Below are positions 2,949 through 61,207 of a DNA stretch of 64,000 bases, piece by piece. Origin of the DNA: an archaeon (GTDB lineage Archaea; Micrarchaeota; Micrarchaeia; Norongarragalinales; UBA97); the NCBI GenBank assembly GCA_020057405.1, contig JAGVFW010000011.1, positions 13,111 through 77,110 on the forward strand. Reading direction: 5' to 3'. The first letter of the stretch is position 1. The number at the start of each line of letters is the position of its first letter. Below the pieces are notes generated by a model, which was not told the origin of the DNA, ran no database searches, and was given only the letters and a program-made list of their open reading frames with translations. The position numbers and the translations under genes are program-made.

Positions 2949-3626
2949 ATGCGGTTCTTCAAGTACGGCGAGAAAGGCAGTGAAATCCTGGCAATAGTGC
3001 TGCCTGGAAGCATCCAGCGAAGCTCAATGGTGAAGGAAGGCGACGAGTACGAGTTCATCGAATTGGCTCCGGGGGCTTTCTTCCTCGCAAGCAAGGCATA
3101 TCTCTCCGACGTGACTAGAAAAGACCTCGTCGCCAAGCTTGGAGCCAAGGTATTTGAATCAAGCGTCAAGCCCGCCGGGCAAACGACCGCGGCGCCCGTT
3201 TCGCAAACAGCCGTCCCGGCTCCAGTGGCCAAGGTAGAGTCTCCAAAACAGTGGGCGGCAGTCGGGGTACCGCAGTCGGCTTCAAAGAACTACTTTGAGG
3301 GCGAACTTGAAAAGCAGGGCTTTTTGGTCGTGGAAAACGAGGCCGAGGCCAAGGAACTCAGTAAAGCGCTCGAGGCCCGCATCAAGACGGGCGACGTCAA
3401 GGGCGTGCGCGGGTTTGACAAAAAGTTTTACATCGTCAGCCGCGAGTTCTACGAGTCGAATGTCGCAAAAGTGATGAACTCGCCGCCCAAGTCGGAATTC
3501 ACTGCCGCCGAAGTCACGGGCATCGTGAAAACTCCCGAACCCGGCGCCGCCGCACTATTGCAAGTGATGAAGGAAGAAGGCCAGTTGCTTGAGAAGCGCC
3601 GCGGCTACTACCAAATCATCAGGTAG
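2949..3626 (+). CDS. hypothetical protein (225 aa)
   Basis: Long ORF with coding-like composition and a plausible TTG/ATG context; no recognisable motif. Confidence 0.4.
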   Translation: MRFFKYGEKGSEILAIVLPGSIQRSSMVKEGDEYEFIELAPGAFFLASKAYLSDVTRKDLVAKLGAKVFESSVKPAGQTTAAPVSQTAVPAPVAKVESPKQWAAVGVPQSASKNYFEGELEKQGFLVVENEAEAKELSKALEARIKTGDVKGVRGFDKKFYIVSREFYESNVAKVMNSPPKSEFTAAEVTGIVKTPEPGAAALLQVMKEEGQLLEKRRGYYQIIR

Positions 3627-3635
3627 TGATGAAAA

Positions 3636-4271
3636 TTGGTTAGGAAGCAAGCTCTCTTTTCCAAGATGGCTACGTGGCCCGGCCGCCACGCTTCACTGAT
3701 TAAGGAAATGGCGCGCATCCTGCCCTCAAGCGGCAGGCTCGAAATCGTGAACTACGGGCCTGGCGTGATGCACAAGGGCTTTGTTCCGCTGGTGCCAAAA
3801 GGGGAAAAAGCATCCAAGGGCCCGCTCGTGCGCAGCTGGGGCCGCGCAATCCGCCTAGTTGAAAGTACGGCCAGAAGACGCATGGAAACTCCCGAAGGCC
3901 TCGTGACTTTCGAGCCTTTTGAAATCGCCCAGGCGATGGGCGAGGAGAAAAAAGACTTCCGCCTGACCGTCATCGACAAGAAGAGCCATGTGCAAACTGT
4001 GATGGAAAACTCTCCGAGTTATCCTTTGCATCGCAAGAACATCCGCTTCATCAACGCCGGCATAGAAACATTGAGCACGCCCGCCCACGGCATTGTCGCA
4101 CTTGCCGTGATTGGCTACGCAGACCGAAAGAAAGCGGTTGCGAACATGGCAAAAGCGCTCGAGACCGGAGGGGTTCTTGCAACCGACCACCTCACGGAGA
4201 AAGAAATGGCGGAGCACGGCCTGAAACTCCACAGGAAGTACGCCGACGGCGCACTCTACGTCAAGCAATAA
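3636..4271 (+). CDS. hypothetical protein, possible Rossmann/methyltransferase-like
   Basis: LEIVNYGPG resembles a Gly-rich motif I; otherwise unassigned. Confidence 0.35.
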   Translation: MVRKQALFSKMATWPGRHASLIKEMARILPSSGRLEIVNYGPGVMHKGFVPLVPKGEKASKGPLVRSWGRAIRLVESTARRRMETPEGLVTFEPFEIAQAMGEEKKDFRLTVIDKKSHVQTVMENSPSYPLHRKNIRFINAGIETLSTPAHGIVALAVIGYADRKKAVANMAKALETGGVLATDHLTEKEMAEHGLKLHRKYADGALYVKQ

Positions 4272-8401: not shown

Positions 8402-11332
8402 GTGGCTCCCTACCTTGACTCGGCCTCTCACGAGGGCTGGCACGAACCAGAACAAGCGCCCCTGCAGTTTCCCTCAGGCGAGCCGCCAAAACCAGTTACC
8501 CTCAAGAGCATAGGCTACGGCATCCTCGCACTCGCAATCCTGGCGGCGCTCCTGGCAATGCAGGCGCCCGAAGAGCCCAATGAGAAAACAACTTCCGGCA
8601 CGTCATCAAACCTGCTAAGCAAGCTCGGCTCGACAGTGACGCGCGTAGCCAACGCGATACTCGGCCTAGAGCCCAAAAAACTCGCTGCAACAGTAAACGA
8701 CACGAAGAACGCGATTTCAACTACGCCTGCTCCAACACCGGTAGCGACGAGCCCAACGCCTTCCCCCACGCCCGACCCCTGCGCTTGTCCTGGCATTTAC
8801 ACGCCGGTCTGCGGCTCTGACGGCAGGACTTACTTCAATGTTTGTGTTGCAACCTGCGAGGGGGTCTCAATTGCGCCTGCAGAGAACTGCGTGAACTCGA
8901 ATCTTCCCATAGTCACGCCCCGGCCAATGCCCTCGCCAGGCTCGCAAGGCAGTCCCACACCAACACCCTGTCCATCCTGCAGCCCAACTCCCACTCCAAC
9001 GCCGACGCCTTCGCCCACGCCAACACCCTGCCCATCCTGCAGCCCAACTCCCACTCCAACGCCTACCCCGTCACCGACTCCCACGCCTACTCCGTTTCCA
9101 GCGGACTTTTTCGTTGCGCCAACCGCTTGCAGCGACTCCAACCCGGGAACGCAAGCGCAGCCGTTCTGCACTATACAGAAGGCGCAAGCCGAAATCCGCA
9201 GCCTGATTGCGGGCGGCATGGCCAAGGACGCGATAGTGGCGCTGAGGGAAGGCGTTTATCGCATCAACTCGACCATTAACTTTGGCGCAAGCGATTCTGG
9301 CAAAAACGGCTTCAAGGTCAAGTACGTCGCGTACCCCGAGGAAACGCCGGTCCTTCGCGCCAGCCGCGACATCACGGGCTTCGCTCCAACAGGCCAACAA
9401 GGCGTTTTTTCGACCAACCTGCAAAGCGCGGGCTTATTCGACAACGGTTCGCTCGTGTTGTTCTACAACGGTCAGCTCCAGCAGCCGGCGCGGTACCCAA
9501 ATTACCGGGCCCCGGACTTTGGCGCGATAGACCCGTGGGCCGGAAACTTCCTGTACGCGACCGCGCCGAGCTTGACTGCGGACCTCAAGATTTACTACGA
9601 CACCACGAAGCTTGACGCCAGCGGCTGGACGACCGCCCCCGGGAGCCAGGTGGTGATTTTTACCGGCCCCAACTACGTCAACAGCTTTGGTGGAGTGGCA
9701 AGCATCAGCCAAAGCACTGGGACAATCAACATAGCGCGCATAAACAACCAAAACCAGTGGAGCTGGGACTCTGCGTGGCCCTATGACATCAGGGTCGGCA
9801 ACAGGTTCTACATCCAAAACGTTCGCGAGGCGCTTGACGCACCCGGCGAGTGGTACTACAACCCGCAGACGAAAGACCTCTTCTTCTATCCGCCCGCGCC
9901 AATGGGCCAAAACGACCGCGTTTCGCTCCCGGCGGCCTACGACATCATTCGCGTCGAAGGCGGCCAAAACATGGAGTTTAGCGGCCTCACCCTCGAGGAA
10001 GCGTCGGGAACAGGCTTTCTTTTGCACAACAGCAACAACATCGTGATTGCCAACAATGAAATCCGCAGCATAGTGATGAACGACAACAAGCACCCGGGAA
10101 CATGGGGACGCGTCTGGCCGTACGTCTCCTCGCGCGGCATTTACGCGTACGCCGAGGCGGCATCCGACCCGCAGTTCGAAAACATCGTGATAGAGAACAA
10201 CTCAATCCACGACATCGGCGGCGAGGGAATAAGCCTGGGGTCGGCCTCCACAACCCAGGCAAACCAAGACAGGTCAAACGAAGACTACCACTTCAAGAAC
10301 CTGGTTCCGCACAACCACCGCATAACATACAACAAAGTCTATGACACGGGCAAGGTCGCCGCCGGGACTACCGCAATCAAGTTCCGAGGCGTTGGCATTA
10401 CGGTATCGCACAACGAGGTCCACGACGTGCCCCGCATAGGCATCGGGTTCCAGGGAAACGATGACATAATCGAGTACAACCTGGTCTACAACGTGAACCG
10501 GCAGACGGAAGATTCCGGCGGCATCACGCACGGCTCGCGCGGCTGGACTTACCGCAACAACACCATCCGCAACAACTTCGTGCACGACACCGGCGGCTAC
10601 GCGTTCAACAACAGCGGCAGCGGCCTCTACGAGTTCAACAAGTTCAGTTGGGGAATTTACCCCGACGACTTTTCAAGCCAGTTTGAAATCCACGACAACG
10701 TTGTTGCCCGAGCTTCCAAGGGCATGGTGCAAATTCATTCGGGACGCGACAACTACATCCACGACAACATCGGCATTGAAGGCGCCTACAGCGGGCTCTA
10801 CGCGCAAGGCGAGTGGGGAAAGGCAGCCGACAACGCCTCCTTCCAAAACATGTGGAACGAGGTGCAGAACCTTGCCGGCTGGGGCTTCGACACGGCAAAA
10901 TACTATAGCAAGTACCCGCTGCTTGCCAACATACCCAATCCCGCAACCATGGCCGAGAACACGGTGTTCGACAACAACAAGTATGATCGCAACATCATCT
11001 ACTACCCGGGGCACGCGAGTGCTCCCGCTTACTGGGTGCGCCACATCATAGGCACTCCAAACACGGCATTCACCAAGAACCTACTTTGGAACGGCGGCGG
11101 CTCGATTTTCGTGCAGGAACCCGAAGCGGTATCCCACGGCGGCAGCTACACTTGGACCAATGGCGCCTACGTAGCCTTCTACAACTGGACGTACTGGAAG
11201 CAAATGGGCTACGACGCAGACTCACTAATCGCCGACCCGCTCTTCACCAACCCGGCTGCAGACGACTACACTCTCCAGCCGTCGTCGCCCGCCTGGGCAC
11301 TCGGCATGCACAACGTCATCGTGCCACGGTAA
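8402..11332 (+). CDS. membrane-anchored Kazal-domain protein with Pro/Thr linker and C-terminal right-handed beta-helix (pectate lyase/PbH1-like) domain
   Basis: GTG start supported by the paralog N-terminus (MAPY..HEGWH); TM helix; Kazal pattern [29 protein letters not shown]...ENC with six Cys; PTPTPSPTP linker with two CPSC motifs; repeated [13 protein letters not shown] / [20 protein letters not shown] beta-helix repeats. Confidence 0.75.
8961..9080 (+). repeat. 60-bp tandem duplication (x2) inside the Pro/Thr linker of the Kazal gene
   Basis: 8961-9000 and 9021-9060 are 39/40 identical, encoding [18 protein letters not shown] twice. Confidence 0.8.
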
Positions 11333-21399: not shown

Positions 21400-21515
21400 A
21401 GAAAACTAGTGGGAAAGGCGGAATAAAAAACGCGCTTTTGGTGCAGCTTTTGAGGAGCGAGAAGCGAGCCGCCCAACGGAGGGCGGGAGCCTCGCAGCGA
21501 CGAAAAAAGGTGCAG

Positions 21516-21620
21516 TGGGCCCAGCCGGAATCGGACCGGCGATCTTTCGCACGTCAAGCGAACGTCCTTGGCCAACAGTATACCAAAGTATGCTGTCGTT
21601 TACCATTCGACTATGGGCCC
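21516..21620 (-). tRNA. tRNA-Val(GAC) with a ~31-nt intron at the non-canonical 25/26 position
   Basis: Perfect 7-bp acceptor GGGCCCA/TGGGCCC, D-arm GTCG-AATGGTAAA-CGAC, then a 31-nt insert (hairpin CAGCATAC-TTTG-GTATACTG), then G26, anticodon arm TTCGC-TTGACGT-GCGAA, variable loop AGATC, T-arm GCCGG-TCCGATT-CCGGC, discriminator A; 74 nt without the insert. Confidence 0.5.
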
Positions 21621-21653
21621 AAATGGATGATACTATAATGTTGCGAATGGTTT

Positions 21654-22325
21654 TTATTTCGCTAATATTGACATCCGACCTGACTCTACCCAAGCCTCGT
21701 AGCGTGAAATGTTGCGCGGATTGCTGCTTCCAACGAAGGAAAACCAGTTTTTGGTGTTCGCAATGCCGTTGACGCCGACAATGTGACCTGATTCGTAGGC
21801 CGAAAAACCCGCTTCGCGCAAGATTGCCTTAATTTGGAGTCGAAGAGGCTCGCTGGAACTGCTGATTATCGCAAACGGCCGACGATAGCCCTCTGACTTT
21901 CTAGCGGCAAAGCACCCATCAGTGTCAAAAATTCCCCTAACGACACGCAGCTTCTTTACAAGCTGCAGAGCTACAATCCAGTCAGGCAGACGGATTTGGC
22001 CCTTCTTGCCTATTGGAAAGCCTACTTTCACGAGAATCAAGGCGAATTCCTTGTTGTTTATGACAAGGTCAACGGTATTGACGTTCTTGACATTAGTAGG
22101 TTTGCGCAAGTGAAGGTACGAATTGACGCCCAACTCAGTCAACAAAGGCTGCAAATAATTTTTAAAATATTGAAGGTCAGTCGTTGCGTTTCCGGTGATG
22201 AAGATGCGGTAGGCAACTAAACCGCCCGCGTCCTTTCTCTTAAAACGAACTAAGCAGCCGTCGCCAACAAGAGCGCCAAATAGCTCTAGAAAAGAATGAG
22301 ACTCAAGGTCAAAAAGCGGCTTCAT
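21654..22325 (-). CDS. free-standing LAGLIDADG homing endonuclease (double-motif)
   Basis: Two dodecapeptide motifs, LELFGALVGDGCL and VVRGIFDTDGCF, ~100 aa apart; own start and stop; not embedded in a host ORF. Confidence 0.75.
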   Translation of the reverse strand: MKPLFDLESHSFLELFGALVGDGCLVRFKRKDAGGLVAYRIFITGNATTDLQYFKNYLQPLLTELGVNSYLHLRKPTNVKNVNTVDLVINNKEFALILVKVGFPIGKKGQIRLPDWIVALQLVKKLRVVRGIFDTDGCFAARKSEGYRRPFAIISSSSEPLRLQIKAILREAGFSAYESGHIVGVNGIANTKNWFSFVGSSNPRNISRYEAWVESGRMSILAK

Positions 22326-22380
22326 GCTAGAATTAGGACTTCAGCAAAGCAATTGCTTCCGGGAGGGTGGCTTGCCGGGC

Positions 22381-22818
22381 TTACTTAAGCTCTTTTCTGA
22401 TGAGGCTCGCGGTGGCGAAGAGGTCTTTTTCGGCCGGTTCGGTGCGCAAACCCATTTCCTTGACGGCCACCTGCGTGAAAACGTCGTCGCCGTCGCGGCG
22501 GGGAAGCAAGTGCACGTGAACGTGCCTCTTGACGTACTTGCCTTCGGGCAGGTAAGGGCGGAAGTGCTGGCGCATGTCGACCCCGTCGCCCAAGCCCGCG
22601 GCGAGTATCGCCTTCTCGACGCGCGCGACGACTTTAAAGAGGTCAAGTAGCTCGGCGTCGGGAACTTCCATAAGCGACTCGTGGTGCGTCCTCGTCGTTA
22701 CGAGGCAGTGGCCCTCTGCAATGGGATGCTTGTCCATAAACGCGATCGAGTGGGCAGTTTGCGCAATCACGCCCTCGTGAGGGTTGTCGCGGATGTGGCA
22801 GAAGTCGCAGTTGTGCAT
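22381..22818 (-). CDS. HIT-family hydrolase
   Basis: Histidine triad HVHVHLLPR; N-terminal C.FCHI; start chosen at the internal Met. Confidence 0.8.
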   Translation of the reverse strand: MHNCDFCHIRDNPHEGVIAQTAHSIAFMDKHPIAEGHCLVTTRTHHESLMEVPDAELLDLFKVVARVEKAILAAGLGDGVDMRQHFRPYLPEGKYVKRHVHVHLLPRRDGDDVFTQVAVKEMGLRTEPAEKDLFATASLIRKELK

Positions 22819-22875
22819 CAAACAATTTGAGCACACAGGCAGATATAAATTAGAAATGTGCACTAGAAAGAACCG

Positions 22876-23187
22876 ATGCACCCTCTTTACGAGAAGCTCG
22901 TTGAAAAACTAAGGCAGTTTCCTGCAAAAGTAAGCAGTTTCAGTACGCCCAATCACCATTCGCTCGAAGTGGTATTTCACGTGGGGGACATGCGCGAAGA
23001 AGAAACATACGCTGCTGAGAGCAGTATTAGGGACGCTTTTGAGTTTGCCCACGGAATCATGAGCAAGGGACATCTTGAAGTGCAGGTCCGCCCATCAAAA
23101 GGGCTCTTTGAGCTAAGTGCCATCGGGCACAGCAACAAGGGAGTTGAACTCGTTAGGTTCCTGCACGATAGGCTGAAGGAAAGATAA
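22876..23187 (+). CDS. hypothetical protein (103 aa)
   Basis: ORF with coding composition; no motif. Confidence 0.35.
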   Translation: MHPLYEKLVEKLRQFPAKVSSFSTPNHHSLEVVFHVGDMREEETYAAESSIRDAFEFAHGIMSKGHLEVQVRPSKGLFELSAIGHSNKGVELVRFLHDRLKER

Positions 23188-33948: not shown

Positions 33949-34144
33949 GTGCCCGAGAGGACACGCGAGCCACCTGCCAAATTAGGTTAGGAACTGGTGA
34001 GTTGAATGAATTTCGTTAGTGCGTCAAAAAAAGAAAAAGTGCTCGAAAGGACGAGAGAGTCACCCACCAAATACAATTGGGGAGAACTCGAATATATTTC
34101 TTGTGCCGGTGTGCTCGAGAGGGTAAGAGGGTCACCCACCAAGT
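33949..34144 (+). repeat. three degenerate direct copies of a ~34-nt motif (GTGCYCGARAGG...GAG.CACCYRCCAARY), periods 90 and 72 nt
   Basis: Copies at 33949-33982, 34039-34072 and 34111-34144, ~75-80% pairwise identity; the third lies inside the tRNA-like gene. Confidence 0.6.
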
Positions 34145-34189
34145 GACTGCGCGCAGGCGCAGTGTGGGGTTCAAATCCCCACCGCCGGC
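34105..34189 (+). ncRNA. aberrant type-II tRNA-like gene (long variable arm; anticodon loop CCACCAA), possibly a pseudo-tRNA
   Basis: Acceptor GCCGGTG/CGCCGGC, U8, D-arm, stem-loop GTCAC-CCACCAA-GTGAC, 17-nt variable arm (TGCGC-GCAG-GCGCA), T-arm TGGGG-TTCAAAT-CCCCA; but one extra nt lies between the T-stem and acceptor, and the loop has C33/A34. Confidence 0.35.
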
Positions 34190-41057: not shown

Positions 41058-41133
41058 GGCAAGCCACTTCCGATAATTCCTTATGGTTAAAAGCAGCACT
41101 TGATTTAAACAGTTTCCGTAAGGTGTGGTTTCA

Positions 41134-44100
41134 ATGGAAGTAGCGCAACAGAGGCTTATTAGCAGCGAGCTGGTGCTGCGGTTCGACAAGTTTTTCTCGC
41201 AGGAGAGCCAAAAGCGGCGGCTTGAAATCGTTGCCTCAAAGTACCCGCAGGTAAAGAGCGCCGATGTCGACCTTGACGACGTCTACAAGTTTGACCACGA
41301 CTTGGCGGACGAAATCCTTGAGCAGCCTGACGTTTACCGCGAGGCCGCGGAAGAGGCGGTGCGCAGGATGGGCGTGGCGTCAGTGCAGGAAAACGAGTTT
41401 TCGCCCCACGTGCGCTTCTTCAACACGCCTGACGTGCCAAAATTCCGGCCCATGGTGCTTGAGCTCGGCGCAGACCACCTAAACCGCCTTATTTCGATTG
41501 ATGGCACGGTCAGCTCAATTGGCGACATCAAGCCGCACTTGAAGCGGGCGGTGTGGCGCTGCAAGTTCTGCGAAGCCACTACCGAAACTTTTCCCGACAA
41601 GACTGAACCGGTCCAGCCGCCGTTCTTTTGCGAGAGCTGCACGCGCAAGGACGGGAAGGCCAACTTCGAGCTTGACGAGAAGGCAAGCTGGCTTGTCAAC
41701 AAGCAGCGGTCTGAAATCCAGGACGCAGTCGAGCGCCTGCGCGGCAACGTCCCGGCAGTGCACGTCGAACTGTGGCTTGAGGACGACCTCACCAACAGGA
41801 TTGCGCCAGGCGATAAAGTCATCCTTAGCGGCATCCTGAGGCTAAAGCCCCTGACGCAAGGCCGCGGGAAGAGCAGCGTTTACGGCAAGTTTTTCGAAGT
41901 CATGCACGTTCACGAGCGTGAACTTGAATTCGAGGAAATCGAGATTACAAGAGAGGATGAGGTCGAAATCCTCAAGCTTGGCCGGGACCCCAAGCTGTTT
42001 GAGAAAATCGTCGCGAGCATCGCACCCAGCCTCTACGGTTACACTGAACTAAAGCAGTCGATTGCGCTGCAGCTATTCGGAGGCACGCCCGGAAAAGTGC
42101 TTCCTGACGGGGAGCGCATCCGAAGTGATATGCATATTTTAATGATCGGTGATCCGGGTTGTCTCGTGGCCGATGAGCGGGTTGCACTAGGAAACGGCGC
42201 AATCGCTAAGATGGGAGAGCTTGGAACCAAACACTTGCAGGAAATAAACGTGTCCGTGCTTACTGGCGAGGGGGGAAGGAAACGGGATGTCGCAACCGTC
42301 TTCCACAAGTACCCTAACCAGCCGGTCATGGAAGTAATTACAGAAAGCGGCAAAAGCATCAGGGGAACTCACAACCACCCGCTATTGTGCGTAGAAGGCG
42401 ATTACGGAAGGATACAAAGAAATTGGAAGCGCCTTGATGAACTCAAAGTCGGGGACAAACTGGCGGCAGTAACGTCAATCCCCTGTACGATTACCGCACC
42501 GGTCGCTACCGGATTCAAGCCTCTAGCCTACAAGGGGGGACCCAAGTTCAGCGGAAAGCTGCCGGCCCGCTTCACGCCCGACCTGGCCGCACTGTCGGGC
42601 TATTTCCTTGGCGACGGCTGGGCAACTGAAACTGAAGTCGGATTCGTAGTGGCCGAACCGGAGAAAGACATCATACCCGAGCTTGAGCGCAAGTGCGTAA
42701 AGCTTTTTGGCATTAGTCCCAAGAAAGTGTCGCACAAGCTCGCTAAAGGCAGAACGGTTCCACTCCACTACTTCGGGCTATACTCGAAAGATATTGCGAA
42801 TAACTTAAAGTTCCTTCGGGAAAAGCGCGTGCCGGCACTGGTCCTCGCGTCGGGAAATAGGGTATTGGCGGAATTCCTAAAATGGCTCTTTGAAGCTGAC
42901 GGCACGGTCTTCGACAAGGGCAGGGGCAGGCGGGTCGTCGGGCTAAAGGCCAAGAATATCGAACTATTGCGGGACGTTCAGATGCTCCTACTTAGGTTTG
43001 CAATCCACTCGCGAATCGACGGCAACGCGCTTTTGATACGCCGGGGGAATGACATCATTAAGTTTACAAAGAAAATCGGCTTCGCATCGCAAAAGAAGAG
43101 GAAAAAACTCGAAAGCCTCGCCGCCAAAGCCAAAGGATTCGCGAGGACAAAGGGGCAGCGGGTTGAAAAAATCGTCAAAATCATCCGACACCCCCCCGAA
43201 GACGTCTTCGACGTCGAAGTGCCAAAGGGCCACCGCTTCATCGCAAACGGCATTATCTCCCACAATACGGGCAAGTCAACTATGCTTGAGTACGTTTCCA
43301 ACATTGCGCCCAAGAGCGTTGTTGTTAGCGGTGGCAGCTCGACTGGCGTCGGCCTCACGGCTGCTGCTGAAAAAGAGGAGGGCGGCGAGGGTTGGGTGCT
43401 TAAGGCGGGCGCCATGGTGCTCGCGAATGGCGGAATTGTCGCAATTGACGAGCTTGACAAGATGAATGAAAACGACAGGGGCGCAATGCACCAGGCGATG
43501 GAGCAGCAGTACATCAGCATTGCAAAGGCAGGCATTGTCACTGAATTCCAGACCAAGACTGCAGTCTTGGCGGCTGCAAACCCAAAGCTCGGCAGGTTTG
43601 ACCCCAACACGCCCCCCGCGCAGCAATTCAACATTTCTCCGGCCCTGCTCTCGCGTTTCGACCTGATTTTCACCATGCGCGACGTGCTTGACGAAAGCCG
43701 GGACAAGGCAATGGCGAGCCACATTCTCGAGGGCCACAGGATTGCGGCCTCGAAGGAAGCCCCGCCGAAGTCAAGCATCACCGTCCCGCTAATTGAGCAG
43801 ACTATTTTGCGAAAGTACATCGCTTACGCAAGGCGCCACTCAGCTCCAAAGCTCACGAAGGAAGCCTCGGAGAAAATCAGGGACTACTACGTGCAAATGC
43901 GCCGCATTGGACAGGAGCAGAATACTTTCCCGATCACTGCGCGGCAAATTGAGGGCCTCATCCGCCTCTCGGAAGCTAGCGCGAAAATGCGTTTGTCGGC
44001 AACAGTTGACTTGCAGGACGCCCAGCGCGCGGTTGACTTGCAGAACTACGTGCTTAACGAAGTCTTCATCGACAGGGAGACCGGCAAGCTCGACAGCGAC

Positions 44101-44337
44101 GTCGTCAATCTCGGACAGTCGAAGAACCGGCTTGACCGCGTGCGGACCGTGCTTAACATCATCCGCGACATCGAACGCGAGTACGACCTCGCTCCCATCG
44201 ACGATGTCGTGAAGGAAGCGCGCAACTACAACATCGACGAGTTCTACGCAAGGAACCTCATCGACGAGCTACTCCGCAAGGGCGAGCTCTACGGCCCCAA
44301 GGCGGGGTATGTGAAGAGCGCACGGCAAAGGGAATAG
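41134..44337 (+). CDS. mcm: MCM replicative helicase containing an intein in the Walker A loop
   Basis: Zn-finger CKFCE...CESC, Walker A GDPG-[intein]-TGKST, Walker B IDELDKM, Arg finger SRFDL; alternative GTG start at 41125; 701 aa after intein removal. Confidence 0.9.
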   Translation: MEVAQQRLISSELVLRFDKFFSQESQKRRLEIVASKYPQVKSADVDLDDVYKFDHDLADEILEQPDVYREAAEEAVRRMGVASVQENEFSPHVRFFNTPDVPKFRPMVLELGADHLNRLISIDGTVSSIGDIKPHLKRAVWRCKFCEATTETFPDKTEPVQPPFFCESCTRKDGKANFELDEKASWLVNKQRSEIQDAVERLRGNVPAVHVELWLEDDLTNRIAPGDKVILSGILRLKPLTQGRGKSSVYGKFFEVMHVHERELEFEEIEITREDEVEILKLGRDPKLFEKIVASIAPSLYGYTELKQSIALQLFGGTPGKVLPDGERIRSDMHILMIGDPGCLVADERVALGNGAIAKMGELGTKHLQEINVSVLTGEGGRKRDVATVFHKYPNQPVMEVITESGKSIRGTHNHPLLCVEGDYGRIQRNWKRLDELKVGDKLAAVTSIPCTITAPVATGFKPLAYKGGPKFSGKLPARFTPDLAALSGYFLGDGWATETEVGFVVAEPEKDIIPELERKCVKLFGISPKKVSHKLAKGRTVPLHYFGLYSKDIANNLKFLREKRVPALVLASGNRVLAEFLKWLFEADGTVFDKGRGRRVVGLKAKNIELLRDVQMLLLRFAIHSRIDGNALLIRRGNDIIKFTKKIGFASQKKRKKLESLAAKAKGFARTKGQRVEKIVKIIRHPPEDVFDVEVPKGHRFIANGIISHNTGKSTMLEYVSNIAPKSVVVSGGSSTGVGLTAAAEKEEGGEGWVLKAGAMVLANGGIVAIDELDKMNENDRGAMHQAMEQQYISIAKAGIVTEFQTKTAVLAAANPKLGRFDPNTPPAQQFNISPALLSRFDLIFTMRDVLDESRDKAMASHILEGHRIAASKEAPPKSSITVPLIEQTILRKYIAYARRHSAPKLTKEASEKIRDYYVQMRRIGQEQNTFPITARQIEGLIRLSEASAKMRLSATVDLQDAQRAVDLQNYVLNEVFIDRETGKLDSDVVNLGQSKNRLDRVRTVLNIIRDIEREYDLAPIDDVVKEARNYNIDEFYARNLIDELLRKGELYGPKAGYVKSARQRE
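42160..43266 (+). mobile_element. MCM P-loop intein (~369 aa) with LAGLIDADG homing-endonuclease domain
   Basis: Begins Cys after GDPG, ends His-Asn before Thr(+1); internal LSGYFLGDGWA and LKWLFEADGTV dodecapeptide motifs; boundaries +/-2 nt. Confidence 0.8.
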
Positions 44338-57152: not shown

Positions 57153-57611
57153 GTGAAAACCAGTGTTTTTAAGCGCAAGCCCGAGTTCTGGGTTGCGTTT
57201 GTTTTTGCGCTGATTGCCTGCTGTGCAGTTGCCGCGCTTTTCCTATACTCTCTTTTTAGCCAATCGAGCCTCGCCGTAATTGCCGCGGCCCTGGTTGCGT
57301 TGGGGGCAATAAGTATTGCCGTTGGCAACGCGCTAGTAAACACGGTGACCACGGTTGCCGTGGGACCGGGCAATGTTGAAATAAGGTTTTTGGGCAGGGA
57401 AAAAGTTTCTTTCTCCAAGGCGGACGCCATACTAATTTCCGCCGCGCTTTGGGCAATTCCCGCAGAGCTCACAATCAGGCACGGCAAGCAGGTTGTCTCG
57501 ATTGGCACTTACACCTGGTTTAAAGACGCGCGGGGGCTGGAGAAAGCAGTGCAGCAGGCGCTCAAAACCAAGGCAAAGAACCTCGGGATTATCACTTCAA
57601 AAGCCGAGTGA
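57153..57611 (+). CDS. hypothetical membrane protein (152 aa)
   Basis: Two N-terminal TM helices followed by a small soluble domain. Confidence 0.35.
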   Translation: MKTSVFKRKPEFWVAFVFALIACCAVAALFLYSLFSQSSLAVIAAALVALGAISIAVGNALVNTVTTVAVGPGNVEIRFLGREKVSFSKADAILISAALWAIPAELTIRHGKQVVSIGTYTWFKDARGLEKAVQQALKTKAKNLGIITSKAE

Positions 57612-57697
57612 AGAGTGCCGAAATTCGCGTGAAACAAGACCCGGGCAGTTTTTTGCCCCGGGGCTTGGTTTTTATTCCCCAAAAGAGTAACGAAAAC

Positions 57698-60600
57698 ATG
57701 CGTAAGGGCGCTTTTCGGCGGGCCGCATTCCTATTTTCCTTGCTCTTGCTAGTTATGGCAGTTCCCTTGCGCGCCACCAACCACACTTTCGAGTGCAGCC
57801 GGATGGCGCCCGCGGACTGGATTATCCAGCCGGCAGCGGAAGAAAACATGCGCGACGACAGTACCATGGACAAGGAGGAAGCCGCAATTGCCGAACAATA
57901 CGACCACTGCAGTTACCGCAACGCGGACAACGCGATAAACCCGCAGATGAATGTCCTGCTGTTCGTGCAGGGAGTGTTTCACCACAAACAGGCTGGTGCG
58001 GACAAGTACATTGCCAACACCGTCGAGGGCACGAAAAAATACGGGGTTACCGGCAATACCCCGGACAACAGGTACTGGTTTTTCACTGGTGCCAACTGGA
58101 GGATTGTCGTGGAAACTGCGGAGTTCGTCAGCGAATACGACCCCAAGACAATGAAGCCAAAGGGATACCACTACTACGCATGGAAGGGCAGGGGCGAAGT
58201 TTGGAAGCAAATCGGCCACTGCGTGCTTTCAGTCTCAGGCGAGCTTTTCCCCCCTGACTTGAACTACCGTTTCGACCCCATTCCGGAACGCGGGCCCTAC
58301 ACCACCAAACAGCAAGCCGTCGAGGTTGGAAGGGGCGTGCTGATGCGCGAATTGGCCGAGAAGGGCGAAGGGCTTTTGGCAAAAGCGTCAACCGCGGAAC
58401 TCCAGGAATTCTGCATGCGCTCGCTTGACGGCACGGAATCAGCCGCTCCAACGCCATCACCTTCACCGAGTCCATCGCCAGAGCCCAAATGCGATACAAA
58501 CGGGGAAATAATTTTCGAGCCAACTCAAGGCGTCTGGCAGGATGACTACCACTTTGCCGACGCGCCAGGAAAAAGAATAGAGAGAATCGCGCAAGGGCAA
58601 TACAATGCTGAACTGCCAATGGTTGTGGGAAGGCGCTCGCTTATTTTCGGACAAAGAGGGGCTGGCGCCCCAGACGCGGTAACGGACTTCGAGCGCAGGA
58701 CAATTAAAATGAAGGGGACCACTACGGGAACCACGGCGGTAATGTCGAGGATCAAGTTCTCGCTCGACTCGCTTGGAGCGTCGAAAACCGTCTACGAATC
58801 GGCCAACGAAATCGCGCTCCCAATCGGCCCGCCTTGCGGGGCGCAACACGCCTTTTCAAGAACCCTGCCCGCCGGGCTGGGCCTGCCGCCCGCGACGGAC
58901 TTCACTTTTGACTCAAAGGGCGCCTACGAGCTCAAGGCAGAACTGCTAAGGGGAAGCGACAGCAAGCCGGTAGGAGTGCAGACCAGCGTCTTTGGAAACG
59001 CGGTTGAAACAAAGGAAATGCAAGTGCACTTTGTTGCAACAAGTGTAATGCCGGCAATAGGCGCGTTGGCTGCGCAAAACCTGGCCGCGTGGACACGCCA
59101 GCTGGCCCAGGACTCGCAAGCCTACATTCCCGACTACTTCCCGCTTGCGCAAGGGCCAAACGCGATACAGACCCTCACCTATCCAGTACTACGCTCGTAC
59201 TTCTCGACCCTGGCTCAGGCAAACCAGAGCTGGAAGGCTTACTGGGCAAGCGCGCTCTTTACGACAGGCGAGGATGACGAGCGGGTTTACGAACATTACC
59301 GCAGGCAGCACATGGCCGCGCAGGTTTTCGGGGAACTTTCGGCAGGCGCAATGTTCGGCAACGCCGACAAGATAGTAGTGGTCATACCAAGCGAGGAGGC
59401 GGGAACGCTGATGGGATCAGGGGCAGTGGCAATCTCGGTTACCCAAAAAGTGGTGATAGTGCCCTACAACATTAACTACACAAAGCCGCCCCACGACACG
59501 GTTGCCCACGAACTTGCACACACCATGCCCTTCATATGGTCCGCGGACGAAATGCTGGCGGCGTGCGCAGACGATTACCACAACACCAACCGGACTATTG
59601 CGCACGGTTTTAGGATAACTTACGGGGGCGCTCCGGCAGTCAGGGGACACGTTCCAGCCGGCGGGGCGCTGCCGATAATGGGGGTCGGGACGCTCGTCGT
59701 AGGGCCGGCCGTGTGGGCAACCGACACGCTCTACGACGCCAACAGTTACACCGTCTGGAACGACCAGTGCACTTATACGCACTTGGCGGACTACATGCAG
59801 GCGCCAGTTGACCCCAAGCTGCTTTTGGTAAGGGGCGAAATCGCAAGAAAGGACGGCAAGTATTTTGCGAGGCTGGCGCCATCATACGAGTTTTACGGAA
59901 CGCCTACCTTGAGCGCCAACGGCACGGGAAGCTGGAGAATAGTCGTCAGGGACGCTTCGGGAACCGAAGGTCCGTCATACGCGTTTGAGCCCGGGTGGGA
60001 ACTGCCCACCCAGCCAGAGCACGTTATCCTTGACCTCGTTTCCTTCACCCAAGCAATACCGTTTGAAGACAATGCCGCATCAATAGAAATATACTCAAGC
60101 GAGGGGCTTGAGGCTACGATGAAGTTAAGCGCCAACGCGCCGACAGTGCAAATAACCTCGCCTGAAAACAATTCAAACACCGAGCCCCAAGAACAGGGCA
60201 CCCCAATTGCGTGGGAGGCGGGTGACGCGGACGGCGACGCGCTTGCCTACACCGTGCTTTACTCTTCCAACGGGGGCGAAAGCTGGCGGCAAGAAGTTTT
60301 TGAAACAACGCAAACAAGCGCGAAAATAAGGCTCGACGACGCGCCCGACCACCTTGTGAAAGTGCTTGCAACAGACGGCGCCAACAGCGGCGAGGCGGTC
60401 GTGGCTTTCAGCACGCGAGCAAAGGAACTCCAGCCCACGCCGGAACCCCAAGCTGCTTCGCCGCAAATCGAGCTTCCCCAAGAAATAGACTTTTCATTCA
60501 TCCCGCAATCGGTTGCCAGCTTGCTTGGCGGGGGGATTGTGAGAATAGACTTGTACGAGGGCGGCACTCCCGCATCGTTTTGGTATGAGCTCCAAGAAGG

Positions 60601-61207
60601 CGGCAAGGCAGTCAGGCTGGCCGAACCGCAGGGGGCAGCCCTTGCTCTGCAAGTTTCAATGACGCGCTCGGTATTTGAGGCAATGCAAAACTCCGTCGAC
60701 TCGCAGAATGCCGCAAAGCTGGCGGTGAGCCGCGATGCCGTGCGAATCAATTCCCCGGACGCTGCAAAGCAGGCGGCGCTCGGGTTTTTCAAGCAGACCG
60801 TAAAAGGGGATGAATTCAACCCCGCGCCCGGAAGCGAAGTGCAATTCAGGGGAAAAACGGCAACAGTGGTTGAAGGCCCGGCAGGAAGGCCTGCCCTCTC
60901 AATTGCCGGCGAGCGGTTCCTGCCGGTGATGAACAGGTACGGCGCGCCCATGGGAGCAAGCATTCCGGGCACGGCAGGGTTGCTGGCCAAGGCAAAAGAA
61001 TCAAGCACGCAAGGCGGGGCGGGCGAAGGGTTTTCGCAAAAGGCGGGAGTGCTTGCGGCAGACCCAAAGACCGGAAAGCCCGTGCTTGAGCCTCAAGCTG
61101 AATCAACCCCGCGGGCGCCAATCGCGGCAGTGAAGCCGGCAAGGGCGGCGTACAGGGCGGGGATAAGCGCAAGAAATGCATACAGGCAAGCGACTGCAAG
61201 GGGATAA
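57698..61207 (+). CDS. giant secreted protein (~1170 aa) with a zincin-like HExxH motif and Ser/Pro linker
   Basis: Signal peptide MRKGAFRRAAFLFSLLLLVMAVPLRA; APTPSPSPSPSPEPKC linker; HELAHTM embedded in VAHELAHTMPFIWSADEM; start taken at Met 57698 (ORF opens at 57608). Confidence 0.5.
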   Translation: MRKGAFRRAAFLFSLLLLVMAVPLRATNHTFECSRMAPADWIIQPAAEENMRDDSTMDKEEAAIAEQYDHCSYRNADNAINPQMNVLLFVQGVFHHKQAGADKYIANTVEGTKKYGVTGNTPDNRYWFFTGANWRIVVETAEFVSEYDPKTMKPKGYHYYAWKGRGEVWKQIGHCVLSVSGELFPPDLNYRFDPIPERGPYTTKQQAVEVGRGVLMRELAEKGEGLLAKASTAELQEFCMRSLDGTESAAPTPSPSPSPSPEPKCDTNGEIIFEPTQGVWQDDYHFADAPGKRIERIAQGQYNAELPMVVGRRSLIFGQRGAGAPDAVTDFERRTIKMKGTTTGTTAVMSRIKFSLDSLGASKTVYESANEIALPIGPPCGAQHAFSRTLPAGLGLPPATDFTFDSKGAYELKAELLRGSDSKPVGVQTSVFGNAVETKEMQVHFVATSVMPAIGALAAQNLAAWTRQLAQDSQAYIPDYFPLAQGPNAIQTLTYPVLRSYFSTLAQANQSWKAYWASALFTTGEDDERVYEHYRRQHMAAQVFGELSAGAMFGNADKIVVVIPSEEAGTLMGSGAVAISVTQKVVIVPYNINYTKPPHDTVAHELAHTMPFIWSADEMLAACADDYHNTNRTIAHGFRITYGGAPAVRGHVPAGGALPIMGVGTLVVGPAVWATDTLYDANSYTVWNDQCTYTHLADYMQAPVDPKLLLVRGEIARKDGKYFARLAPSYEFYGTPTLSANGTGSWRIVVRDASGTEGPSYAFEPGWELPTQPEHVILDLVSFTQAIPFEDNAASIEIYSSEGLEATMKLSANAPTVQITSPENNSNTEPQEQGTPIAWEAGDADGDALAYTVLYSSNGGESWRQEVFETTQTSAKIRLDDAPDHLVKVLATDGANSGEAVVAFSTRAKELQPTPEPQAASPQIELPQEIDFSFIPQSVASLLGGGIVRIDLYEGGTPASFWYELQEGGKAVRLAEPQGAALALQVSMTRSVFEAMQNSVDSQNAAKLAVSRDAVRINSPDAAKQAALGFFKQTVKGDEFNPAPGSEVQFRGKTATVVEGPAGRPALSIAGERFLPVMNRYGAPMGASIPGTAGLLAKAKESSTQGGAGEGFSQKAGVLAADPKTGKPVLEPQAESTPRAPIAAVKPARAAYRAGISARNAYRQATARG

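Follow-up and report, generated by a model that had tools for sequence, protein, structure and literature searches.

The region examined here is a 64,000-nucleotide stretch of contig JAGVFW010000011.1 from a micrarchaeal genome (positions 13,111 to 77,110; this whole stretch is called the window below, and coordinates are counted from its first nucleotide), in which a free-standing homing endonuclease gene (HEG) of the LAGLIDADG type lies just upstream of a tRNA-Val(GAC) gene that carries an intron in its D-loop. The elements of the locus are as follows:

21654-22325, minus strand: free-standing LAGLIDADG HEG encoding 223 amino acids, with an ATG start and its own stop codon
22254-22289, minus strand: LAGLIDADG motif 1, LELFGALVGDG (LELFGALVGDGC), with catalytic aspartate D22
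21915-21944, minus strand: LAGLIDADG motif 2, VVRGIFDTDG, with catalytic aspartate D136
21621-21653, minus strand: spacer of 33 nt from the HEG stop codon to tRNA position 1, holding the A/T-rich TATA-like box ATTATAGTA
21516-21620, minus strand: whole tRNA-Val(GAC) gene, on the same strand as the HEG and at its 3′ side
21600-21620, minus strand: 5′ exon of tRNA-Val(GAC), tRNA positions 1-22 (GGGCCCAUAGUCGAAUGGUAA)
21567-21599, minus strand: D-loop intron of 33 nt at position 22/23, of the non-canonical bulge-helix-bulge (BHB) type
21516-21566, minus strand: 3′ exon of tRNA-Val(GAC), with the anticodon GAC at 21553-21555 and no encoded CCA
21503-21508, minus strand: run of six T residues, 7 nt past the tRNA 3′ end, which likely serves as a transcription stop

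The HEG protein matches the Pfam family LAGLIDADG_3 in two stretches (E = 1.1e-9), and each of its two dodecapeptide motifs terminates in the catalytic Asp-Gly. The aspartate of motif 1 is kept in 158 of 159 aligned family representatives and that of motif 2 in 162 of 163, and residue K108 is, like both aspartates, nearly invariant among the 163 representatives. An AlphaFold model built with 16 homologues as input (pLDDT 94.9, pTM 0.91) has two alpha-beta-beta-alpha-beta-beta-alpha halves, that is, the pseudo-dimeric fold, and a Foldseek search of the PDB with this model placed I-Tsp061I (E = 1.6e-10) and I-DmoI at the top. Both are monomeric LAGLIDADG enzymes of archaeal rRNA introns, and both also rank best by sequence profile; WhiA and the bI3 maturase are among the fold matches at lower rank. 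The product of 21654-22325 is clearly a member of the monomeric double-motif LAGLIDADG endonuclease family. The profile match, the fold and the two catalytic aspartates therefore confirm the original prediction, made from the sequence alone, of a real free-standing double-motif gene at this place. Its placing of the HEG 3′ end next to the tRNA 5′ end also holds, with 33 nt between the two genes; the 34 nt first given is the count obtained by subtraction.

The GC content of the HEG (47.5%) is below that of the window (55.7%) and of the neighboring genes (57-60%). Even at E ≤ 1, Rfam detected neither a group I nor a group II intron in the surroundings of the HEG, and no integrase, flanking repeats or target-site duplication were found there. 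A second LAGLIDADG member had been expected in the same window and is present: the MCM gene at 41125-44337 on the plus strand contains an intein at about residues 355-714 with a LAGLIDADG_3 domain. No relation of the HEG to this intein domain could be detected in the pairwise BLASTP comparison (E = 1.9). The HEG of the window is neither intron- or intein-encoded nor a domesticated derivative.

The tRNA gene is poorly recognized by standard tools. ARAGORN without its intron option misses it altogether, and Rfam returns a partial match of 22 bits against a threshold of 29. Manual inspection shows that the acceptor stem and the anticodon arm (UUCGC-UUGACGU-GCGAA) are both perfect, that the variable loop has 5 nt, and that the T-arm has the loop UCCGAUU, which is common to many Micrarchaeota Val genes. 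Its intron lies between GGUAA and GACG rather than at the canonical 37/38 site. In-silico removal of the intron gives a canonical 72-nt tRNA-Val(GAC) according to ARAGORN, and the spliced junction GGTAA-GACG is the same as in 70 of 72 intron-free Micrarchaeota Val genes. Two other solutions were rejected. The call of ARAGORN with the -i option, a Pro(UGG) tRNA with a 37/38-type intron, has a mismatched anticodon stem, and is at odds with the intron-free consensus, whose junction is GGUAA|GACG. A 26/27 intron beside an intact D-arm (GUCG/CGAC) fails on the same consensus, and relatives lack the CGAC. The link of the HEG to an intron-containing tRNA, as first proposed, is thus real, and the intron has no open reading frame (ORF) within its 33 nt; that it is a non-canonical D-loop intron at 22/23 was missing from the first description. 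Measured from the HEG end, the tRNA begins 33 nt downstream, and the distance to the intron is 54 nt.

In the minimum-free-energy fold (z = -3.9), exon UGGU pairs with intron GCCA in a 4-bp helix, and the 5′ junction falls in the 3-nt AAA bulge that separates this helix from the inner hairpin of the intron; the 5′ splice site thus has the strict form, H(4 bp)-B(3 nt)-h′. At the 3′ splice site, which is located in a 3x2 internal loop beside the D-stem, the BHB form is the relaxed one. The same H-B-h′ architecture is present in relatives despite quite different intron sequences. In a hand-trimmed alignment of five genomes (A3), all cells (100%) are paired and 6 of 8 pairs are changed on both sides, with far lower values when the partners are slid. 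A broad-specificity epsilon2 splicing endonuclease has been described in Micrarchaeota (PMC3239211, PMC3488258). Because the H-B-h′ motif recurs with compensatory changes, the spliced tRNA is canonical, and Micrarchaeota have the epsilon2 enzyme, the tRNA-Val intron is predicted to be spliceable.

A word-indexed search for relatives of the HEG yielded 17 proteins, all of free-standing size, and genomic context was taken for 11 of them, which makes 12 lineages with the window. In all 12, a tRNA gene is located at the HEG 3′ end. The partner is tRNA-Val(GAC) in the window and in L001, L003, L004, L007, L018, L171 and L172, tRNA-Ala(CGC) in L009 and L010, and tRNA-Ser(UGA) in L016, whose contig carries type IV pilin genes and is probably from a bacterium of the Candidate Phyla Radiation (CPR); in L012 the partner tRNA is on the opposite strand. 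The distance from the HEG to the tRNA is variable: it is +33 nt in the window, and in its relatives it extends from an overlap of 10 nt to +29 nt. In L004, L009, L010, L018 and L172 the HEG overlaps the tRNA by 10 nt, and its stop codon is formed by tRNA residues U8-A9-G10.

The same arrangement is found far beyond these lineages. A degenerate-pattern scan of metagenomes gave at least 432 further relatives, and of 75 non-redundant metagenome loci, about 66 show a tRNA adjoining the HEG 3′ end (56 co-directional and 10 convergent), while tRNAs near the HEG 5′ end are only occasional. Offsets at the co-directional loci are mostly between -55 and +40 nt, with the HEG stop codon again often provided by U8-A9-G10. 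Overall, in about 78 of the 87 homologue loci, whose hosts are DPANN archaea and probable bacteria of the CPR, the HEG 3′ end abuts a tRNA gene or reaches 10-55 nt into it. By our estimate, which assumes about one tRNA per 20 kb, the rate expected for a random ORF end is less than 1%, and as homologue loci show this neighbor in about 90% of cases, chance adjacency is excluded. Homologues unlinked to tRNA genes had been named as a finding that would count against the original prediction; the homologues are indeed stand-alone genes, but they adjoin a tRNA gene almost without exception, and this objection clearly fails. An exhaustive profile search extended the family to 480 clusters at 50% identity with E ≤ 1e-30 and to 2516 with E ≤ 1e-10, of free-standing length. 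Many C-termini among the 163 representatives read like translated tRNA 5′ ends (GP, GL, ..PVAQLG, ..FGGVG).

Average-linkage clustering of the proteins groups the HEGs by the identity of the partner tRNA, namely Val(GAC), Ala, Arg(CCU) with 16 members, Thr(GGU), Ser and Gly; the Thr(GGU) cluster includes both co-directional and convergent arrangements. Such tracking of tRNA identity is what would be expected if the tRNA gene were the DNA target of each clade. Another account of the adjacency, in which the HEG rides on the tRNA 5′ leader or promoter, is weakened because convergent arrangements exist and the majority of Val-clade HEGs are preceded by a TATA-like box of their own, about 25-30 nt before the ATG. 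The A/T-rich box just upstream of the tRNA, which is retained in both the window and the related locus L081, likewise counts against a shared promoter.

Two side observations concern the family as a whole. About half of its members (alignment A1, columns 1-150: P0007, P0009, P0010, P0012-P0014 and P0016) carry an N-terminal extension of about 110 amino acids with a helix-turn-helix-like motif, LKxWRxGxxxIP, which may be an extra DNA-binding domain; the HEG protein of the window is without it. At L133, a 5′ tRNA fragment (GCCCCCGTAGCATAG) upstream and a T-arm plus acceptor 3′ fragment downstream (about 2489-2503 and 3625-3656) flank a block consisting of tRNA-Thr(CGT) and the HEG, and these fragments may represent a tRNA gene split by a HEG-bearing insertion.

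The HEG-bearing Val(GAC) genes were compared with Val genes that lack a HEG. In the former, 8 of 8 alleles, which are related to one another, are altered at tRNA positions 18-26:

intron at 22/23: the window, L001, L003, L004 and L172
intron at 18/19: L007
intron at 25/26: L018
no intron, rare C25T change (GGTAAGATG): L171

Of the 72 Val genes of Micrarchaeota without a HEG, 70 have the intact sequence GGTAAGACG and two are altered, one in L081, a syntenic allele with an intron, and the other in L026, which reads GAT. Three insertion sites and one substitution within 8 nt fit a putative target in the D-arm that needs to be disrupted in HEG carriers, and the altered 8-nt stretch is where the central cleavage region of a LAGLIDADG enzyme could lie.

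Further peculiarities of HEG-linked tRNA genes were noted in passing. D-arm introns were recognized by eye in HEG-linked tRNAs of L010, L097, L104, L106, L117, L132 and L164, from which no general enrichment among HEG-linked archaeal tRNAs is claimed. The HEG-linked tRNA-Val(GAC) of L001 (5436-5640) has a second intron of about 85 nt in its T-loop. In L172 (about 794-915) the anticodon loop reads UCGUCGU (anticodon GUC, with C at position 33) instead of UUGACGU; this contig has only 2x coverage, and the odd loop may be a sequencing error or belong to a decaying tRNA.

A scan for the 5′ half of the Val gene, with one genome per species, yielded the 72 HEG-less loci, nearly all from Micrarchaeota, and a HEG upstream of the Val gene was found in none of them. 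Five of the 72 share the DUF2226-MinD-LSM neighborhood of the window. The closest relative of the window among them is L081 (identities of 66% for MinD, 60% for DUF2226, 94% for LSM and 61% for the HIT protein), in which the HIT gene is followed after 36 nt by a tRNA-Val(GAC) gene with the same D-loop intron and no HEG. The allele of the window and this empty allele differ by only about 730 bp, and their spacers are too diverged to be aligned across the HEG insertion. The other syntenic loci, L020, L027, L034 and L058, have neither HEG nor D-arm intron. L001 is the most divergent host (45% identity to the window for MinD and 35% for DUF2226), yet it has the closest HEG (64%). Because of the empty loci at L081 and the other syntenic sites, the incongruence of host and HEG in L001, the foreign GC content, and the lack of an integrase or repeats, these data, from a limited sample, indicate that the HEG has been gained and lost at a fixed site, as for a homing element.

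The Val-clade HEGs are 52-64% identical to each other and the clade is star-like, so that the intron sub-types (GCCA, GCCG and GACU) could not be resolved for co-segregation with HEG sub-clades. The HIT-family gene lies at 22381-22881, upstream of the HEG, and an HTH_10/BAT regulator gene follows downstream of the tRNA. Between the HIT gene and the HEG, at 22364-22377 on the minus strand, 39-52 nt upstream of the HEG ATG, is a conserved motif, CGGCAAGCCACCCT, which is also present upstream of the HEGs in L172, L171 and L004, although the upstream genes differ among these loci, and which is followed after about 10 nt by a TATA-like box. Judged from this conservation, the motif is probably part of the mobile unit, perhaps its left end, or of the promoter/operator region of the HEG.

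Taken together, we favor, with somewhat better than even confidence, the view that the gene is an active, mobile, free-standing HEG of a family whose homing targets are tRNA genes, and that the D-loop intron provides immunity of the target site, in a BHB analogue of the collaborative and intronless homing of phages. In genomes without the HEG, the enzyme would cut the D-arm of the intron-free tRNA-Val(GAC) gene at about tRNA positions 18-26, and the HEG-bearing allele would then serve as the template for repair of the break. Lying flush with the 5′ end of the tRNA, the HEG would be in close linkage with the cut site and would be co-converted during repair together with the D-loop intron. In the resident host, the 33-nt intron would split the recognition site and render the tRNA gene immune, and the splicing endonuclease of the host would remove the intron from the RNA and leave a functional tRNA. 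Within this scheme, the cutting itself, the place where it occurs, the protection by the intron and the co-conversion are inferred. The flush position of the gene would maximize co-conversion with the cut site, and the orientation of its 3′ end toward the tRNA could reflect that a 3′ end needs no space for a promoter.

Several points weigh against this explanation. The target site is deduced solely from where the HEG-bearing alleles differ. Because the eight HEG-bearing Val alleles are related, the contrast of 8/8 with 2/72 overstates their independence, and perhaps four events are represented. Many HEG-linked tRNAs are intron-free (L009, L091, L092, L094-L096, L099-L102, all of the Arg(CCU) group, and apparently bacterial loci), and therefore the intron shield is not the general form of immunity in the family; other forms must exist, such as substitutions or a site that is split by the HEG insertion. 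D-loop introns are also present without an adjacent HEG, in the tRNA-Ala(GGC) of L027, L034 and L058 and in the tRNA-Val of L081. Since the Val-clade HEGs are only 52-64% identical, their transfers appear to be old rather than recent. The incongruence of host and HEG rests on one lineage and three host proteins, and the covariation alignment A3, having been trimmed by hand into register, is biased towards the structure under test. As to the HEG-less tRNA-Ala(GGC) introns, they could be relics of lost HEGs or independent introns; these tRNA-Ala genes lie just upstream of the tRNA-Val in the three genomes, and the position of their intron is similar to that of HEG-linked tRNA-Ala, for example in L106.

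The competing explanation that survives best, though we regard it as rather unlikely, also has a mobile HEG, with a recognition site that straddles the tRNA boundary (upstream flank plus tRNA 5′ end) and is split by the HEG insertion, and treats the D-loop intron as an unrelated feature of the lineage. It accounts well for the flush or overlapping position at the tRNA end, which is universal in the family and includes intron-free tRNAs and apparently bacterial hosts, and it is in keeping with D-loop introns that exist without HEGs and with L171, which has a HEG but no intron. The HEG-tRNA spacing, however, varies from -10 to +33 nt among close relatives, and the sequence upstream of the tRNA is unconserved between HEG-less alleles, which would leave half of the site unconserved. 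In addition, the Thr(GGU) cluster of HEGs is found on either side of the tRNA. The alteration of 8 of 8 Val alleles at positions 18-26, by introns at three sites and a rare substitution, is left unexplained by a straddling site and is accommodated by a target within the D-arm.

An improbable alternative is a domesticated LAGLIDADG protein of the maturase or WhiA kind, which would bind either the pre-tRNA or its gene, aid expression or splicing, and be inherited vertically. Co-transcription is suggested by the conserved same-strand and often overlapping arrangement, the lower-ranked fold matches include WhiA and the bI3 maturase, and the Val-clade proteins are old (52-64% mutual identity). WhiA and maturases lose the catalytic Asp residues, whereas in this family both are kept almost without exception (158/159 and 162/163). 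The HEG is also patchy in its occurrence, being absent from the sister genome L081, where the intron is kept, and from intermediate lineages; its partner tRNAs are often intron-free, and some of its hosts look bacterial. Its foreign GC content and a similarity that is incongruent with the host genes also argue against vertical inheritance. The original prediction had raised a domesticated enzyme acting as splicing or homing factor for this tRNA locus. The part about a homing factor comes close to the explanation favored here, while the part about a domesticated splicing factor is not borne out.

Escape of the HEG from the adjacent intron, or impending invasion of that intron, had also been suggested. 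In the broader form of this idea, the HEG recently escaped from a tRNA intron, another intron or an intein, or is about to invade one, and we consider it very unlikely. I-DmoI and I-Tsp061I, which are the closest relatives with a solved structure, have their genes within rRNA BHB introns of archaea, and collaborative homing has been proposed as a route to mobile introns (PMC2988022). Against this, all of the approximately 87 homologue loci have a HEG of free-standing size beside a complete tRNA, and none has the ORF inside an intron or intein. No group I or II intron signal surrounds the HEG of the window, which also does not resemble the MCM intein domain in pairwise comparison, and being free-standing is an ancient condition common to the whole family. 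Finally, tRNA genes are common integration sites, which speaks for incidental adjacency of a larger element integrated at the tRNA or of a chance neighbor, but this is effectively refuted and deserves next to no credence, because the window and the empty L081 allele differ by only about 730 bp without integrase or flanking repeats, the flanks are syntenic housekeeping genes, the HEG is at the 5′ and not the 3′ end of the tRNA, and the pattern recurs at about 90% of homologue loci.

Beyond this locus, mobile HEGs at tRNA edges may be a major force by which non-canonical BHB introns enter archaeal tRNA genes and spread among them, a wider proposal that we put forward only tentatively and regard as doubtful on balance. 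Repeated cutting of the D-arm would select insertions that break the site and that can be removed by a promiscuous splicing endonuclease, and the HEG would then carry the intron horizontally into new genomes. If true, this would explain in concrete mechanistic terms how ectopic tRNA introns arise and undergo "transposition" in archaea, DPANN lineages included, a question that has long gone without an answer. An endonuclease-based route to the gain or mobility of ORF-less tRNA BHB introns was not found in the literature, which was incompletely covered. With a HEG tied to an ectopic BHB intron, the question of intron gain becomes testable with one protein and a few synthetic DNA substrates.

The family itself is large and apparently undescribed in the searchable literature: no account of LAGLIDADG genes directly next to tRNA genes in genomes of DPANN or CPR lineages was found, with subscription journals incompletely covered. 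It consists of selfish endonuclease genes that live at tRNA edges in the smallest known cellular genomes, and it is a source of many natural meganuclease scaffolds, for each of which the adjoining tRNA points to the likely target. For genome annotation, it matters that standard tools miss or miscall a tRNA such as the one described here and that ORFs of this HEG family overlap tRNA genes.

Elsewhere in the window, ARAGORN calls an 86-nt tRNA-Gly(acc) at 34104-34189 on the plus strand, with a long variable arm, the anticodon loop CCACCAA and C at position 33. It is unreported by Rfam at the gathering score and may be a tRNA of an unusual, class-II-like form or else a pseudogene; a portion of its loop (TCACCCACCAA) recurs about 45 nt upstream. 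Two long ORFs were also noted on the plus strand, one of 976 amino acids with Kazal and beta-helix domains (8402-11332) and one of 1199 amino acids without a Pfam match (57608-61207).

Among known systems, I-DmoI and I-Tsp061I are archaeal enzymes with the same fold as the HEG of the window, with two motifs in a single chain, and are likewise tied to introns that are removed by the BHB splicing endonuclease of the host. In contrast to the HEG studied here, which is free-standing upstream of a tRNA gene, they are encoded inside the introns they mobilize and have rRNA targets, and they are only 16-19% identical to it in the structural alignment. LAGLIDADG genes have also been described within insertion sequences and introns of CPR and archaeal rRNA genes (PMC11270868, PMC6125680). 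These resemble the present family in their ultra-small CPR and DPANN hosts, in the superfamily to which they belong and in the exploitation of conserved RNA genes, but they are embedded in group I introns or intervening sequences, whereas the present family lies outside, at the edge of the tRNA gene.

Free-standing endonucleases at tRNA genes are known from phage T4, in which SegB, a GIY-YIG enzyme, is encoded in the tRNA gene cluster (PMC2988022, Table 1, its reference 38). SegB promotes the inheritance of the tRNA region by intronless homing and is similar in this position to the HEG of the window. It differs in its nuclease family, in its phage host and in its target, which is the tRNA intergenic region, and it shows no overlap of ORF and tRNA, no involvement of an intron, and no large family with clades that track tRNA identity.

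The closest parallel in logic is collaborative or trans homing, as described for F-CphI with the HEG-less psbA group I intron of cyanophage S-PM2 and for T4 mobE with I-TevIII (PMC6083498, PMC2790892, PMC2988022). In these systems, as here, a free-standing endonuclease gene adjoins a gene with an ORF-less intron. The logic that we propose for the locus in the window is also that of the phage systems: cutting is directed at intron-free alleles close to where the intron inserts, the resident allele is shielded by its intron, and the two elements are co-converted. The phage systems involve self-splicing group I introns, protein-coding genes and Endo VII or HNH enzymes, while the locus described here has a tRNA with a protein-spliced intron of the BHB type, an enzyme of the LAGLIDADG family and a cellular DPANN genome as host. 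Because the intron is of the 33-nt BHB type without a group I signal and the hosts are cellular, the system in the window would be an analogue of collaborative homing and not a member of the described cases.

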